Source: a virus. Taken from it: DNA of 64,000 nucleotides. The translations under genes and the position numbers were made by a program. Positions 16,971-49,782 of the stretch are shown piece after piece. Below the pieces are notes generated by a model, which was not told the origin of the DNA, did not search any database, and worked only from the letters and a program-made list of their open reading frames with translations. How positions within the stretch are numbered: position 1 is the first letter of the stretch; every line of letters starts with the position of its first letter. The stretch covers positions 1-64,000 of the IMG/VR virus record IMGVR_UViG_3300026488_000019. One strand, 5' to 3'.

Positions 16971-17825
16971 TTAAGGAATTTTATACAACACAAAAGTAGA
17001 AAATTGAGAGGCTGAGGAAAGCTGAGATTTAAGCCTTTCTTTATCTTTGGTTATATGAAAAGGATTACCATTTTCAAAGATTTCAACATTAGGATACAGT
17101 TTAATGTCTTGAGAATAATAAGTAAGCTTATTATAAGCTTCTTTAACAGAACGGAGATTACTCCCTACTCCGTCTTGAATATAACAGTATATAAAAGGAA
17201 GATTGCATAAATCTTTTATGTATTGAAAATTTGGATTACTACAACCATTCCAGTAAGGAGAAACAACTGTAACGTATTTATACTTTTGGTATGCATAATT
17301 AGCAACTTCCCTTACATAAGAGGAATAGTTATCAAAAATAACACATAAGTTGAGTTCTTCAGGAATGTAAACTCCTAAAATGGAGGATTTCCATTTTGAA
17401 TAAATCCAATCTATATATCTTTTTTGATGTTCAACCCATTCTTTATTATAGTAACCATTAGACTGAGCAAATTTAGGATAATCTACATCTAAGCCAACAA
17501 TCACCTGAAAATTATTATCAATTAGATGTTGAATAATTCTGTTTTGGTTCCGTATATCTAAGTTTCCATTGTAAGTATCATAATTGACAATAAAGAAGCT
17601 AAAATCACAGTTTAATTCTGCTTCAGTTAGATAAATTTTCTCTAACAAGTTTTCTGGAGAATCTTTGTGATATTTATCTTGATAAATAAATGCTCCAACC
17701 TCATTATTTAATACCAACTTCATTTCAGTTCCAGTTGACTTGTTAGAAGGAGGGTTGTTGCCACCTCCTCCACAGGATATAAAAGTAGTAGCAACAACCC
17801 CCAAAATAACAAATAAACTACGCAT
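16971..17825 (-). CDS. Lipoprotein, putative glycoside hydrolase (TIM barrel, DUF4434-like)
   Basis: Lipobox FISCGGGG; GVYIPEE, VSPYW, QDGVG, NVEIF motifs. Confidence 0.65.
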   Translation of the reverse strand: MRSLFVILGVVATTFISCGGGGNNPPSNKSTGTEMKLVLNNEVGAFIYQDKYHKDSPENLLEKIYLTEAELNCDFSFFIVNYDTYNGNLDIRNQNRIIQHLIDNNFQVIVGLDVDYPKFAQSNGYYNKEWVEHQKRYIDWIYSKWKSSILGVYIPEELNLCVIFDNYSSYVREVANYAYQKYKYVTVVSPYWNGCSNPNFQYIKDLCNLPFIYCYIQDGVGSNLRSVKEAYNKLTYYSQDIKLYPNVEIFENGNPFHITKDKERLKSQLSSASQFSTFVLYKIP

Positions 17826-35497: not shown

Positions 35498-35938
35498 CTA
35501 TCCCTCTACCTCAACTTCTATTTCACACTCTCCATCTTCCATAGCACAAAGAACTGCATCTTCAGCAGTAGGATTGGACTTAAGTTGAAGGAGTTTAGCT
35601 ATTGCATCTACTTTATTAAGAGCTGAAAAGATAGGATTACCTTGCTCATCTATTAAATCAAAAGTAGGAGCATCTGAACCATTAAAGATAAGTTTAGCTT
35701 TTATAACTTTAGTTTCATTTTTCTTAGACTCTTCAGGCTCTTCATCAGGTTGTTCTGGTTCTTGATTATCTACTTTCCTAGTCATAGGAGTACCACACTT
35801 AGGACAATCATAGTTAGAACAAGGTACTCCCATAGGAGCTTCCATCTCATAACCACAGTTAGGACATACACAGGTTTTAGTAGGAATTTCTATATCTAAG
35901 TCCTCTAGCAAGGAAATTATTTCATGTATCTTTGCCAT
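35498..35938 (-). CDS. Cys-rich zinc-ribbon protein
   Basis: CVCPNCG...GVPC....CPKCG; AAAGGAGG SD. Confidence 0.7.
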   Translation of the reverse strand: MAKIHEIISLLEDLDIEIPTKTCVCPNCGYEMEAPMGVPCSNYDCPKCGTPMTRKVDNQEPEQPDEEPEESKKNETKVIKAKLIFNGSDAPTFDLIDEQGNPIFSALNKVDAIAKLLQLKSNPTAEDAVLCAMEDGECEIEVEVEG

Positions 35939-35965
35939 AACCTAACCTCCTTTATTACTGAAAAT

Positions 35966-35989
35966 GGGAGAGGGTTAGTACCCTCTCCC
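35966..35989 (-). terminator. Terminator-like hairpin after the capsid gene
   Basis: GGGAGAGGGT-N4-ACCCTCTCCC followed by ATTTT on the minus strand. Confidence 0.7.
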
Positions 35990-35997
35990 TATATCAA

Positions 35998-36426: not shown

Positions 36427-37721
36427 CATCACCTTCAGCAGGGATCGCTACTCCCCACCCGTCTTACCAGGAGGTTCTATGTAATCTTTATACTTTCTAA
36501 GATAAGTTTTCCAAGTAGGATAAGAATTGGGATAATATTCTTTCCTCACTCTTTCATAATTTTCTTCAGTACAGGGAAGAGAAAGTTCATTAAGCTTATC
36601 CAGAATCTTAACTATCATTCTAATGGTTCTTTGTCTCAGACCTTCTTCAGTATGAACTTTCATTCCTTTAGTAATTCTTATTAAACCTTTAGCTAACTTC
36701 TCCTTTCTAGTTTTAACTCTCTTCTCAATTGCCTCTTTAGGCATCTTCCTACCTTTAAGCTTCTCACTAATCTTCCTCTTGGTCTCCTCGCTATGTCTCC
36801 TTCCTCTGGACTTTTCACCTATTTTTCTCCTAGTTTCCTCGCTCCACTTTCTACCCCAATTAGGATGCTCAGGCCCTCTTGGGTAATACCTACTTCCTAT
36901 CTTCTTTCTAGTTTCTTCATCAAATTTTCTTCCAAATCTCTTCTTCCTTATTTCAGAGGGTAACCCTTCTCCTGAAACTCCATCACCACCAGGAGTAAGG
37001 TTATGTAGAGGGCCTTGCCCTAACTCATACCTTCCTATGGTAGCTATTAGTTCTTTTTCTTTCTCTAACGCTTCCTCTTCTGTTAAACCTGAAAATACTT
37101 CCAAAATAATAGGTTCAAGTCCAGCATTCCAAATAGCTTTAATTTGGTTATTTTTAGGGTGCTTAATACCCTTCCTCGCTTCATCCAAATGAGCAAACTT
37201 TCTCTTCCCTGTACCCTTACCTACATAGAAAGGTTCATAATCAAACTCATACTTACCATACTTGAACTTTCCAGGATAACGAGGGTCTAGGTAAACATAT
37301 ACATAGAACCTTCTGGCAGACCGCCCAGAGGTTTCCCTCTGGGATGGGACTATATCACCACTCTGGGGCATTTTATTAACCTCCTAAAGCAGGATATATG
37401 ATTATTATAACCTATAACCCCAGAGTGCCCCCCATTTCGTCCTCGCTTGAGGACTACTCCAGGGCAGGAATCCAAAATAGGATTCCTGTTTATCCCCTTG
37501 GATAGTCTCTGAACCTTCCCCATAGGTATCATAAGATACCTTTAGGGGCTTGGCTGCGGGTTGCCCATTTCAGGAGTTTTACTCCCTCATCCCTTAGCTT
37601 TTTACCATACCCACAGGCTTGCGACCTGTGGCCCTCACTAAGGTTTCCCTTAGTGAGTTGGTACTAAGGGCTTTAGGGCTTTCCCGCAATTAGGGGGGTT
37701 TAACGAGCACTAGCAAAACTA
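36427..37721 (-). ncRNA. Group I intron (IA-like, 1295 nt) in the major capsid gene
   Basis: P1 GAGCAU|UAG with CUAGUGCUC gives U.G at the splice site; P AAUUGCGGGAA, Q GGCAACCCGCAGCCAAG, R GUUCAGAGACUA, S GAUAUAGUCC; terminal G; UUUGCU can form P10 with exon 2 AGCAAA. Confidence 0.92.
36448..37371 (-). CDS. Intron-encoded GIY-YIG-type homing endonuclease with NUMOD3 repeats
   Basis: FYVYVYLDPR...PFYVGKG..R...H...E..LI...NLTPGGDG; repeated SEETRRKI/SEETKRKIS. Confidence 0.88.
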   Translation of the reverse strand: MPQSGDIVPSQRETSGRSARRFYVYVYLDPRYPGKFKYGKYEFDYEPFYVGKGTGKRKFAHLDEARKGIKHPKNNQIKAIWNAGLEPIILEVFSGLTEEEALEKEKELIATIGRYELGQGPLHNLTPGGDGVSGEGLPSEIRKKRFGRKFDEETRKKIGSRYYPRGPEHPNWGRKWSEETRRKIGEKSRGRRHSEETKRKISEKLKGRKMPKEAIEKRVKTRKEKLAKGLIRITKGMKVHTEEGLRQRTIRMIVKILDKLNELSLPCTEENYERVRKEYYPNSYPTWKTYLRKYKDYIEPPGKTGGE

Positions 37722-38675
37722 ATGCTCAAAATAGCTTACTCCATCTGGAGGAGTTTTGTCCCAATTAATAGTTCCACCAGCAGGATTAGCATTCATCTTC
37801 CTGATAAGGTCACCACCAATCTCATTGTTAATAGCTACAACCAGGTCTTTAGCTAGTTCATCTTCAGCTACAATTCCAAACCTTTGCCTGAGAGCATAAG
37901 ATTGGAGAAGTCCTACTACTCCTTTAAGAGCATAAATCCTAGCTGTAACAGGTACAGATTCAAATACAGAACCAATGCTAGGTAGGTCTGCTTGAGCTTC
38001 TACATCAAGCTGATATCCAACTACAATAGGAGTTCCATTAGCAGGAGCATCAGCAAAGTGGAGTTCTACTGTACCAGTTTTGTAGTCAATAGAACCCCAA
38101 ACTCCTACTCCAAGGATTACTCCATTACCATCATCCTTACCGTAAACCTTTCCAGCTTTAACTTGGAAAGTTTCAGGTCTTACAGGAACAGGTTCAATTG
38201 TTACTGTGAAGTCTTTAGTAGTACCGTCTCCAGTAGCTACTTCTTTATCTGAAACTACATTAGAAGCAAGTCCACTAGGAAGAACTGCTCCAGTTCTAGG
38301 GTCAATAATAGTATCTCCTGTGTCTTGCCTCTTGATTACTTTGAAGTAAACATTTCCACGCTCTTCTTCAATGTTCTGTACACTAGCTATGAAAGGAATA
38401 ACAGAGTTACCATAAGCTACTGTGATAACATCAAAAGCTACTTTGGGAAGAGCTCCTAGTGAGCTAAGTCCATCTTCCTTAACAGTAGCTTCTAGCATTT
38501 CCCACTTTTCAAGCTCTTTCCCAAGCTGAACTACATCCCAAGCTTGTACTCCTTTAAGCTTACCAAGAATAGTATGATCTTCAAGAGTTTCTACCTGCTC
38601 ACGATATCTTTTAAAGTAGTTCTCTGCCTGTGCTTCTACTTCCCTAAGCTTCTTTTCAATAATGAGTTCGCTCAT
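37722..38675 (-). CDS. Major capsid protein (T4 gp23-like), exon 1
   Basis: IASVQ.I....G.VYF, VTAR...LK, EI..DLI; strong AAAGGAGG SD; follows protease/scaffold. Confidence 0.9.
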
Positions 38676-47185: not shown

Positions 47186-49051
47186 TTAGTCAAGATAACT
47201 ACCCCAAAACAGTTGAGTTAGAGTTTGGTTTTGTTGAGAGGTATTACCTACTTCTGCTTTATGAATCCTTTGGAAAGCTAACTGTTTGATTAAATCTTTA
47301 TTAGTTACTAAATTCCAGTAAACTCCTACTACTGCATCAGCACCATCCTTACTACCTTTAGTTCCATCAGGAAACTCTTGAGGGTGGTCTATCTTCTTAC
47401 CTACATCCTCTACATGCAATAGCTCTTTAATCAGTAAGTCGTGTTTAGGTATCCAAACTCTTTCTTCATATATAGCATCTCTGAAGGAGAGGTAAGGATC
47501 TTTAGTTCTATCTACTGATAAAAGAGCTGTTTTATAACCCATCTGGGTTAACTGTTGCCTCATATCCTCAGACTGGAATCCATCAGTGGTCACCATTGCT
47601 ATTGGGTAACCTAATCTAGAAAGATCTACTATAAACTGCCTTATCTTATAGAATGGGATCCTCTCCCCTGGAAGAGGTTCTAGGTAGGCTACGAAGTCTA
47701 TAACTACTTCTGGTTCAGAAAAGGTATGCTTTTCTAAGGTTAGTGGATCAACTCTTTCTATTGTTTTGTAGCCTTTTATGTAACCTGAAGCTATACCTGT
47801 TCTGTCTCCTGTTATGGAAAGGTCTATATGGATAACTCTAGGAGACTCTTTAAAGAGTGGGTTCTTTAGGTAGTTTATGTTGAAGTAGTTAATTAAGACA
47901 TCTGATTTGTCGTTAAAGGAAAGTCTAATTATCTGTTGGTTAACAGGGTTAGTAACAGAGGCTTGTTTTATGAGTATGTTTTTAGTTTTGAATATCCTGT
48001 GGGTTGAACCTACTGAATAACCAGCTAAATCTCTTATGGCATTGTGTAAGTCTAACTCAAATTTATCCTTTAGCTCTATTGGAACATCTATTACCTTAGA
48101 CTCATCTATGTATTGTAGCTGGGATTCATCTTCTATTATGAATGGATCAGTAGTTTCATCTCCTATGAATACTTTGAAAGTTTTACCTGAGTAGATGCCT
48201 AAGTGCTTTTTAACTTCCCATATAGGGTATTGGAAGATTATTACTCCTTGCTTACCTCTTACCTTTTCTGCATGCTGGGAAACGAAATCAGTAGGAGATT
48301 TCTCTGAAGAAACTAAGCAAAGGTGTCCTGGAAGCTTACCTCCAGCTTGAGCAAATCTAGATTCCATTCTTCTTAGGAGTGCATTGTAAGACTCTTGAGC
48401 TTGGTTAGATATTACATCAAAGTTAGCTTCGTCTAGTATTCCGCCAAATACAGCCATACCAAGGGTATGAGTAAATCTTGAACCTGCTACTATACCTATG
48501 TTGTTAACAAACCTGATTTCTGATGTTTTCTTGTTCTCAGCATCTAAGTGTTCTTGGAAGAACTCTGAGTTAGCTATTAAGTTTTTGAAAGGCTCATATA
48601 AAACCTGATCAGCTAGTCCTAGTGTAGCGTTGAAGAGAGCTATTACTATTCTATCAGTAGGAATTAAGTTAAACTTTTTATGAGGGTTTTCCAATAGGAG
48701 AAGTTTGTAAAGGTCGTAAAGTGTTATAACCCTTGCTATTGAACTCTTACCAACCCCTATCGCACCTCGCAAGATGCACTCATAATAAGGAGAATAAAAT
48801 GGGTTAGGAAAGATTGTTTTTAGAGCTTCTTTCCATACTGGGTATATCTTACCTCCTAAAGAAAGGCCTAAATACTTAGGATGTTCTATAAATGTTATTA
48901 TGTCAACTGGAACTTCTTTATAACCTTCTAATTCAGCATATAGTTGGAATAAAGATTGAGGGTCATTTTGGAACTTCTCTATTAGCTTCTTTAGTATAGA
49001 CCTCTCTTTAGGAGGTAAGGTTTTTAGTTTATTGATTAGTTGGTTTAGCAT
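47186..49051 (-). CDS. terL: Terminase large subunit
   Basis: GAIGVGKS Walker A, ILDEA Walker B, IHIDLS..GD nuclease, DHP...GSKDGADA. Confidence 0.92.
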   Translation of the reverse strand: MLNQLINKLKTLPPKERSILKKLIEKFQNDPQSLFQLYAELEGYKEVPVDIITFIEHPKYLGLSLGGKIYPVWKEALKTIFPNPFYSPYYECILRGAIGVGKSSIARVITLYDLYKLLLLENPHKKFNLIPTDRIVIALFNATLGLADQVLYEPFKNLIANSEFFQEHLDAENKKTSEIRFVNNIGIVAGSRFTHTLGMAVFGGILDEANFDVISNQAQESYNALLRRMESRFAQAGGKLPGHLCLVSSEKSPTDFVSQHAEKVRGKQGVIIFQYPIWEVKKHLGIYSGKTFKVFIGDETTDPFIIEDESQLQYIDESKVIDVPIELKDKFELDLHNAIRDLAGYSVGSTHRIFKTKNILIKQASVTNPVNQQIIRLSFNDKSDVLINYFNINYLKNPLFKESPRVIHIDLSITGDRTGIASGYIKGYKTIERVDPLTLEKHTFSEPEVVIDFVAYLEPLPGERIPFYKIRQFIVDLSRLGYPIAMVTTDGFQSEDMRQQLTQMGYKTALLSVDRTKDPYLSFRDAIYEERVWIPKHDLLIKELLHVEDVGKKIDHPQEFPDGTKGSKDGADAVVGVYWNLVTNKDLIKQLAFQRIHKAEVGNTSQQNQTLTQLFWGSYLD

Positions 49052-49082
49052 TATTGAACTCTTTTTAGAGTGTTATGGATTT

Positions 49083-49159
49083 GCAAGGTAGGAGAAGGGA
49101 GGACTGGGACTCCCTTTAACCTGAGTGGCCAACTCAGGCTCTCCTACCTTGCCCCAGTC
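49083..49159 (-). ncRNA. Structured RNA element: three-way junction plus pseudoknot
   Basis: 13-bp, 6-bp and 7-bp stems plus 7-bp loop pairing, all perfect; GC-rich island in an AT-rich genome. Confidence 0.7.
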
Positions 49160-49202
49160 TGATAAATGGGTTGTAACGAATAATGTTTTGTGGTTATATT
49201 AA

Positions 49203-49682
49203 CTATACTTCCAAGTGTTCTACTACTGAACTTAGTATTTCCTTTAAGGTGTTTCTAGTTTCTTGGTTTATTTCTAGTTGCTCTAGTATAGAAGAGTCTT
49301 CTTCAGTTTCTACTACTCTTAATTCTACTGATTGGGATAGCTTGGAAAGTTCTTTTAAGATTGGTACTAAGGATTTAAGATTATTGAATACTGAATTATA
49401 GGCTTGAACTAATCCATTGTAGAACTCTACCTGTTCTATAAAGTTAGAGAAGTTAGCATTGGAAAGTAATTCATCCTCTAAGGTTTCTAATTTTTCTCCT
49501 AGTTTTATTAGACGAGACATATACTTTTTTATCATTAACCTTGTAAAAGAAGCTACTTCTAGTTTTAAAGAGTCTAAGTCTGGGTCTAATTTAAAGTCCT
49601 TAGAGTTACCTTCTAGGTAGTCTCTTAGAGAGGTTAGTTGTTTATCTAGTTCTGATTGAACCTTTATGTTAGGTTTTTTCAT
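49203..49682 (-). CDS. Putative terminase small subunit
   Basis: Helical coiled coil, upstream of terL. Confidence 0.55.
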   Translation of the reverse strand: MKKPNIKVQSELDKQLTSLRDYLEGNSKDFKLDPDLDSLKLEVASFTRLMIKKYMSRLIKLGEKLETLEDELLSNANFSNFIEQVEFYNGLVQAYNSVFNNLKSLVPILKELSKLSQSVELRVVETEEDSSILEQLEINQETRNTLKEILSSVVEHLEV

Positions 49683-49782
49683 TAGTTACCTCTTTAAGAT
49701 TAGAAAGAGAGGGTAGAGGGTTGTTTCCTCTACCCTTAACTCCCCTGGTCAGGGAGGAAGAGATGGAGGGAAGGACTTTAGA

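Follow-up and report, generated by a model that had tools for sequence, protein, structure and literature searches.

A 77-nt element in the gap upstream of the large-terminase gene (terL) of an uncultured hydrothermal-vent phage folds into a three-way junction whose 5' tail is perfectly complementary to one of its own hairpin loops, and this pseudoknotted fold is probably a functional RNA structure. The element (positions 49083-49159, read throughout on the minus, mRNA-sense strand) probably serves as a control element of the terL mRNA that is particular to this lineage; the assignment of a role in cis on terL itself is tentative. Unless a genome or locus is named, coordinates refer to the window, i.e., the whole 64,000-nt stretch of DNA that was analysed. 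Public sequencing runs matching this stretch were labelled hydrothermal vent metagenome, with no RNA run listed among them, and the genome as a whole, an IMG/VR virus record, comprises 84,995 nt with a GC content of 34%.

Fold and setting of the element

The sequence-only reading had named the 621-aa gene downstream of the element terL, and profile searches bore this out. The protein matched phrog_9 (E 1e-5) and phrog_17415 (E 1e-3) in PHROGs, and among 25 aligned homologues phrog_2 was matched by 17, phrog_9 by 9, and phrog_17415 by 5, all three families being annotated as terminase large subunit. In a large protein collection, relatives of the 621-aa protein carried PF27249. The TerL alignment retained G101 and K102 (in GAIGVGKS) and E208 (in LDEANF), which we take to lie in Walker A- and Walker B-type ATPase motifs. 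The 159-aa protein encoded upstream of the element had no match in Pfam, PHROGs, NCBIfam, PDB sequences, or Atlas, and only 5 clusters of relatives were found for it among 5.8 billion proteins; because it lacks a family match, the name terS is a guess from position and size only. The features of the locus, in 5'-to-3' order on the minus strand, are as follows.

49203-49682, minus strand: 159-aa ORF, terS-like by position only, upstream of the element
49052-49202, minus strand: gap between the 159-aa ORF and terL, 151 nt, untranslated
49160-49202, minus strand: 5' flank, 43 nt, from the terS-like stop codon to the pseudoknot strand, poorly conserved
49153-49159, minus strand: pseudoknot 5' strand GACUGGG, abutting P1, perfect complement of 49102-49108
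49140-49152, minus strand: P1 5' arm, GCAAGGUAGGAGA, 13 bp with 49083-49095
49120-49138, minus strand: P2 hairpin, 7 bp (49132-49138 with 49120-49126), loop UGGCC
49116-49119, minus strand: junction J2/3 (UUAA), between P2 and P3
49096-49115, minus strand: P3 hairpin, 6 bp (49110-49115 with 49096-49101), 8-nt loop
49102-49108, minus strand: pseudoknot 3' strand CCCAGUC, within the P3 loop
49083-49095, minus strand: P1 3' arm, UCUCCUACCUUGC, pairing with 49140-49152
49052-49082, minus strand: A/U-rich leader, 31 nt, from P1 to the terL AUG, conserved
49058-49071, minus strand: small hairpin, 5 bp, over the weak Shine-Dalgarno sequence (SD), kept by RNAalifold
47186-49051, minus strand: terL, 621 aa, downstream of the element, with phrog_9 and phrog_17415 matches

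The element had originally been described as a 13-bp stem enclosing two hairpins in a three-way junction, and every one of these pairings was confirmed on the minus strand, where the Y shape was both the minimum-free-energy (MFE) fold and the centroid fold (ViennaRNA). A single nucleotide, G 49139, separates P1 from P2, and the unpaired junction nucleotides consist only of a G, UUAA, and a U (about 6). The complementarity of GACTGGG to CCCAGTC, also noted at the outset, proved to be perfect over 7 nt, with one strand abutting P1 and the other lying in the P3 loop, and the energy of this pseudoknot duplex was -11.3 kcal/mol (7 bp). In mononucleotide-shuffled flanks, a stretch of 7 nt perfectly complementary to the loop turned up anywhere in 63 of 200,000 cases and directly abutting P1 in 0 of 200,000. 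If the loop helix stacks on P3, the 6 bp of P3 and the 7 bp of the pseudoknot would together equal the 13 bp of P1, giving the tail a direct route into the base of P1; such an agreement in length would suit a compact, side-by-side intramolecular fold. The palindrome to which attention had been drawn is present as UGGCCA (the P2 loop UGGCC plus the closing A), but a loop palindrome of 4 to 6 nt is by itself not beyond chance.

The predicted stability of the region exceeded that of all dinucleotide-shuffled controls. On the minus strand, the 151-nt gap folded at -52.0 kcal/mol (z -5.9) and a 91-nt core at -45.7 kcal/mol (z -5.3), and the plus strand folded at -57.0 kcal/mol (z -4.7); in each of these three tests, 0 of 200 shuffles were as good. 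When both strands of the 84,995-nt genome were scanned in 90-nt segments at a step of 10, the segment containing the element, at -47.9 kcal/mol, ranked second genome-wide (mean, about -13; standard deviation, about 5). The first rank fell over a TnpB guide RNA candidate and the third and fifth ranks over a group I intron, and the fourth-ranked segment (17731-17820) was an unrelated coding hairpin. Furthermore, the Y shape stayed the predicted MFE fold across 37 to 85°C, and the GC content of the element was 0.54 to 0.56, versus 0.34 to 0.35 for the genomes that carry it. A heat-stable, GC-rich fold in a vent phage of 34% GC fits a functional RNA.

The 31-nt leader that follows the element ends in a weak ribosome-binding site. 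The SD of terL is AAAGAG, and no GGAG, GAGG, or AGGA was found at positions -18 to -4. The description of this SD as weak was thus correct, though the property is not rare: a GGAG/GAGG/AGGA core was missing from 20 of the 58 ORFs on the minus strand that encode 100 aa or more, so that a weak SD is no special mark of terL. RNAalifold also offered two weaker pairings, which were not relied on: one of CCCA with UGGG, in competition with the pseudoknot, and one a 7-bp A/U helix that takes in the AUG.

Conservation and distribution among relatives

TerL-based scans of IMG/VR yielded four close relatives, designated L004, L005, L006, and L007, and a TerL-based metagenome scan gave contigs that match three of these in length. 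The element was present at the same place in L004 (TerL, 98%) and in L007 (IMGVR_UViG_3300026488_000001; TerL, 93%) and was absent from the sister phage L005 (TerL, 86%; terS-like protein, 74%); the contig of L006 (TerL, 84%) begins inside terL, so that the gap is not covered. A covariance model built from the three copies (window, L004, and L007) found exactly one copy in each of the genomes G000, G001, and G003, flanked in each case by the same pair of genes. It found none in G002 (the record of L005, 66% complete) or G004 and none in 81 more distant terL loci (357,438 bases), which consisted of L006 and 80 loci from an IMG/VR TerL profile scan (27 to 41% identity). With filters off, the model recovered only the element from the window, the next match (15.4 bits) being the unrelated coding hairpin at 17742-17817, and exact-core scans of IMG/VR returned the L004 and L007 contigs only. 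A separate study from 2025 provided one X6 contig that spans the whole element and two X5 contigs that span most of it, at about 90 to 95% likeness; among the differences listed were a one-letter deletion at 49118 in the X6 contig and an A-to-G change at 49086 in X5 and X6, and these contigs are taken as evidence of presence only. In addition, upstream gaps with a length of about 60 nt or more were folded in 40 cases, 39 from the distant terL loci, and none shared the element; three of the 40 reached z values of -4.4 to -5.5, figures biased by the choice of the best segment and by mononucleotide shuffling. The element is confined to one narrow clade of hydrothermal-vent phages, a distribution judged from relatives represented by DNA loci; further TerL relatives, at 61 to 86%, are represented by proteins. 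A TerL profile scan of prokaryote species genomes gave 2 distant loci and was silent on the host.

In the sister phage, the upstream gene and terL meet at a classical coupled junction, in which 3 nt separate the TAA stop of the former from the GTG start of the latter, with a GAGG 8 nt upstream (L005:2995-3003). Set against this 3-nt junction, the 151-nt gap of the window represents a spacer that replaces a coupled junction, and since L005 combines a GTG start with a good SD, the gain or loss of the spacer was accompanied by a change in start codon and in SD strength. The existence of a sister lineage without the element also shows that terminase expression as such can do without it.

The element is under purifying selection. 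Third codon positions of the flanking genes, taken as a proxy for neutrality only, differed at a rate of 0.161 between the window and L004 and of 0.270 between the window and L007, whereas the 77 nt of the element had 2 differences in the former comparison (binomial P 1.6e-4) and 8 in the latter (binomial P 3e-4). The element thus changed 3 to 6 times more slowly than third codon positions. Conservation extended across the leader to the AUG, where L004 lacks 1 nt of the 31 and L007 carries two substitutions. The 5' flank, by contrast, drifted at approximately the neutral rate: it had 6 substitutions relative to L004 (manual count), its L007 counterpart was shorter by about 15 nt and could barely be aligned, and only the stretch CCAU(U/A)UAU was shared.

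Changes within the element largely preserved pairing. Alignment A4 contained 9 variable columns in the element, 7 of which fell in coordinated pairs or in the pseudoknot strands (manual count). The A-U pair that P1 has at columns 22 and 85 in the window is replaced by G.U in L004 and by G-C in L007; P3 is closed (columns 61 and 70) by G-C in the window and L004 and by U.G in L007; and both strands of the pseudoknot are changed in L007, where GCUGGG pairs with CCCAGC (6 bp, -10.1 kcal/mol). The other two variable columns comprise the closing pair of P2, which turns from U-A into C.A in L007, and one junction U deleted in L004. The P2 stem was otherwise invariant in all three sequences, as was the GGCC of its loop. 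On the plus strand, the G.U pair of L004 and the U.G pair of L007 would be A.C mismatches, and the preference for the minus (mRNA-sense) strand, argued earlier from possible wobble pairs, accordingly gained ground from the relatives, in which both wobble pairs work on that strand only. A covariation control on the three sequences was not significant, with 100 of 500 shuffles reaching the observed values; given this result and the small number of sequences, the covariation is suggestive and anecdotal. Comparison with relatives, which the sequence-only reading had proposed as a check, therefore came out in favour of conservation and pairing-preserving changes (n = 3) but not of significant covariation.

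Known RNA classes and comparable systems

The element had been put forward as an unrecognised RNA, and searches of Rfam 15 agreed with this. At gathering thresholds, the only match in the window was a group I intron, with none at the element, and when E values up to 10 were admitted for 48900-49350, the only match was MIR528 on the other strand (16.6 bits, E 1.1), which is noise. ARAGORN found 0 tRNA or tmRNA genes in the window and 0 in the whole genome. An intrinsic terminator was rejected: P1 is followed by AAAUCCAUAAC, with no U-tract, so that the element is not a plain terminator, and a terminator scan listed none at the element. Small self-cleaving ribozymes (hammerhead, twister, pistol, hatchet, and HDV-like) were likewise rejected, no such family being matched at E values up to 10, and no hammerhead-type core was seen when the sequence was read. 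The earlier suggestion of a self-cleaving RNA is therefore disfavoured, all the more with only about 6 unpaired nucleotides in the junction.

Several further candidates were also discarded. A mobile repeat of the MITE, REP, or PATE type would not be expected in single copy, as found in each of G000, G001, and G003, with none in G002 or G004. A solitary mimic of a CRISPR repeat was rejected because the 19-nt P2 pattern occurred in no arrays (exact matches only); among 185,579 species genomes, the 19-nt hairpin gave 9 single matches in 9 unrelated genomes, none of which extended beyond the seed. These isolated, seed-only matches indicate no host repeat family or CRISPR array with the hairpin. 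The 29-nt core had 0 matches in the same collection of one genome for each of 185,579 prokaryote species. A leader peptide was discarded because a 19-codon UUG ORF within the element is frame-shifted by the 1-nt deletion of L004, translational bypass because there is no matching in-frame landing codon, and a self-splicing intron because 151 nt is too short. Three sequence motifs were dropped after comparison with chance: CCATWTATYA occurred once in the window versus 0.84 expected, RGGTAGRRG occurred 12 times versus 6.2 expected (3 of 100 shuffles reached 12), and the T4 late-promoter box TATAAATA occurred 7 times versus 11 expected.

The closest architectural parallel is the operator of T4 gene 32, in which a 5' pseudoknot is followed by an unstructured A/U-rich leader that runs to a weak ribosome-binding site. 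Here too, the sequence after the knot is a 31-nt A/U-rich leader whose only hairpin is 5 bp long and whose SD is weak. [quoted passage not shown] The pRNA of phi29, to which the element had been loosely compared, joins loop to loop, is transcribed from its own promoter, and serves a single packaging ATPase in phages without a small terminase. The likeness consists in a three-way-junction RNA of the packaging region with short complementary segments through which molecules could join. The differences are that the complementarity here joins a tail to a loop rather than two loops, that there is no Rfam match to pRNA, and that the element sits inside an operon with a terS-like ORF and terL and has no promoter-like site directly upstream and no terminator of its own; the analogy gained no positive support. 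RNase III sites of T7 and REP-type stabilisers shape the relative levels of neighbouring cistrons and, like the element, comprise very stable intercistronic helices without a U-tract, but they are unbranched hairpins or multicopy repeats, whereas the element is branched, pseudoknotted, and single-copy.

A full-text literature search returned one paper with a bearing on structured RNAs before terminase genes, PMC10690425. In it, 14 candidate structured RNAs (csRNAs) mined from IMG/VR are reported to lie upstream of large-terminase genes; a cis-regulatory function was proposed for them, and the gene 32 pseudoknot operator is also described (PMC10690425). Like the element, the csRNAs are short (median, 65 nt), structured, conserved, and located directly upstream of the large-terminase gene in uncultured phages (PMC10690425). 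They differ in gene family, theirs being of the psiM2_ORF9 type (PMC10690425), whereas the TerL family here carries PF27249. A pseudoknot forms no part of such covariance models, and the element, compared with the 14 csRNAs by these general features, may be one of them.

Candidate roles of the element and other features of these phages

Because the element and the leader down to the AUG are conserved while the upstream flank drifts, the pattern points to a clade-specific, cis-acting leader of the terL mRNA. Among the functions offered by the sequence-only reading, a cis-regulator of terL agrees best with the pattern of conservation, and no positive support emerged for a ribozyme or a pRNA-like RNA. 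The element would be transcribed within a minus-strand messenger spanning the terS-like gene and terL, and the knot, the 31-nt A/U-rich leader, and the weak SD would together form the terL 5' untranslated region. The spacer may uncouple the translation of terL from that of the upstream gene. The heat-stable knot could then shield the terL-proximal mRNA by blocking nucleases, to which it would be resistant, or it could provide a fixed anchor beside an unstructured leader for a protein or the 30S subunit, the latter option being modelled on the pseudoknot in the operator of T4 gene 32. Neither a partner protein nor a promoter or processing site was identified for the element. If the fold does control terL, then this thermophile phage would have replaced the translational coupling of its packaging genes by an RNA device, and a compact, heat-stable, pseudoknotted three-way junction would join the few phage leader structures that have comparative support. 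The narrow distribution limits the general importance of the element; the sister lineage without it offers a natural with/without comparison.

The direction of conservation is also what weighs against intercistronic processing or 3' protection, a reading that is plausible and, on balance, rather unlikely. A helix of about 19 to 20 bp, formed by P1 stacked on P2 or P3, might be cut by a double-strand RNase or might block 3'-to-5' exonucleases, so that the terS-like segment would outlive the terL segment and a high TerS-to-TerL ratio would result. Precedents exist in the RNase III sites of T7 and in REP-type stabilisers, and the position between two cistrons of one operon, the extreme stability, the missing U-tract, and the simple GC-rich hairpins in other minus-strand gaps (49710-49736 and 35947-35990) all agree with such a role. 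Conservation, however, reaches toward terL and not toward the upstream gene, and a simple barrier needs neither a pseudoknot nor branching. Another reading is a site at the DNA level, in which the nested GC-rich inverted repeats would form a pac-like or cruciform site for the packaging machinery or a DNA-binding protein. This idea draws on the location between the terS-like gene and terL, on a plus strand that folds as well as the minus strand, and on the conservation of the palindrome, given that the exchange of A-T for G-C preserves a DNA palindrome too. It is nonetheless improbable: the G.U and U.G states pair on one strand only, it is not obvious what the tail-loop complementarity, kept through changes in both strands, would mean in duplex DNA, the sister phage does without the element, and G003, whose record is flagged for terminal repeats, has the element not at an end but at 36.8 kb of its 88.8 kb. 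Just as improbable is a functionless or selfish GC-rich palindromic insertion (MITE- or REP-like) in the ancestor of the clade. Such an origin would account for the presence of the element in one clade, for a sister with a clean junction, and for a GC content well apart from that of the genome, and a TnpB element elsewhere in the phage indicates that mobile DNA does reach it. Against it stand the single copy per genome even with filters off, the lack of any match to the 29-nt core in the species genomes, where the 19-nt hairpin matched by its seed only, and a change that is slower than at third codon positions and preserves pairing.

A stable small RNA derived from the messenger and acting in trans, either as a self-associating, pRNA-like packaging cofactor or as a decoy for a host protein, is slightly less probable again. 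The 7-nt complementarity of the three-way junction could equally form between molecules, the self-complementary GGCC of the P2 loop is kept in 3 of 3 sequences, and packaging genes adjoin. Rfam, however, gave no match to pRNA or any other family; the scan found no minus-strand sigma-70-like promoter directly upstream of the element and no terminator after it; and the equality of P3 plus pseudoknot with P1 would suit an intramolecular fold. The more specific version, in which the knot is excised from the late messenger and, joined tail to loop or through the GGCC loop, binds TerS or TerL as a self-associating cofactor, is very improbable; were it true, a phage with a classical two-subunit terminase would, for the first time, be seen to have a pRNA-like component. 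The least probable readings are a self-cleaving ribozyme and a riboswitch aptamer. A compact pseudoknotted junction in a 5' leader, with an SD-covering hairpin downstream, would suit either, but no such family matched at E values up to 10, and of the few unpaired junction nucleotides, which include no visible hammerhead-type core, one is deleted in L004. A cis-acting terL leader thus stays the favoured reading of the element.

The genome fold scan and the inspection of the terL loci also brought out several other features. The most stable fold of the genome (at 75.8 kb; -58.6 kcal/mol over 130 nt) shares sequence with the 3' end of a TnpB-like ORF of 472 aa, which lies outside the window at 74472-75910 of genome G000 (L096:10472-11910, plus strand) and contains OrfB_IS605 (E 4.5e-18) and Cas12f1-like TNB (E 9e-12) domains. 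This fold, which had sub-threshold Rfam matches to sot0042 and HgcC and which we take to be the guide (omega) RNA of TnpB, is probably the omega/guide RNA of a phage-borne IS605-family element. The TnpB region matched G001 over a 33-nt flank only and had no matches in G002 to G004. A complete group I intron (Rfam RF00028, 106 bits) occupies 37325-37747 on the minus strand. The near-perfect 76-nt hairpin at 17742-17817 (minus strand; -42.8 kcal/mol over 111 nt, z -6.2) coincides with the first codons of a 284-aa ORF (16971-17825) whose N terminus resembles a lipoprotein signal peptide. The minus-strand hairpins at 49710-49736 and 35947-35990 are simple, GC-rich, and followed by U-rich tracts, and thus terminator-like; the terminator scan does list 49710-49736. 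From each hairpin it is about 20 to 27 nt to the SD of the gene that follows (the terS-like ORF and the ORF at 35498-35938, respectively), which leaves a promoter no room before the gene.

In L007, terL is split. Within L007:1271-4557, the gene is divided after the P-loop GVGK into ORFs of 134 and 652 aa in different frames, with a free-standing 324-aa ORF between them. The first part continues as CLG..., and the second has about 134 extra residues, ending ...HHN, before TerL resumes. Several TerL homologues contain intein Pfam domains, and from its sequence the L007 gene resembles one interrupted by a split intein into which an endonuclease gene was inserted, an arrangement that presumably corresponds to a "fractured gene."
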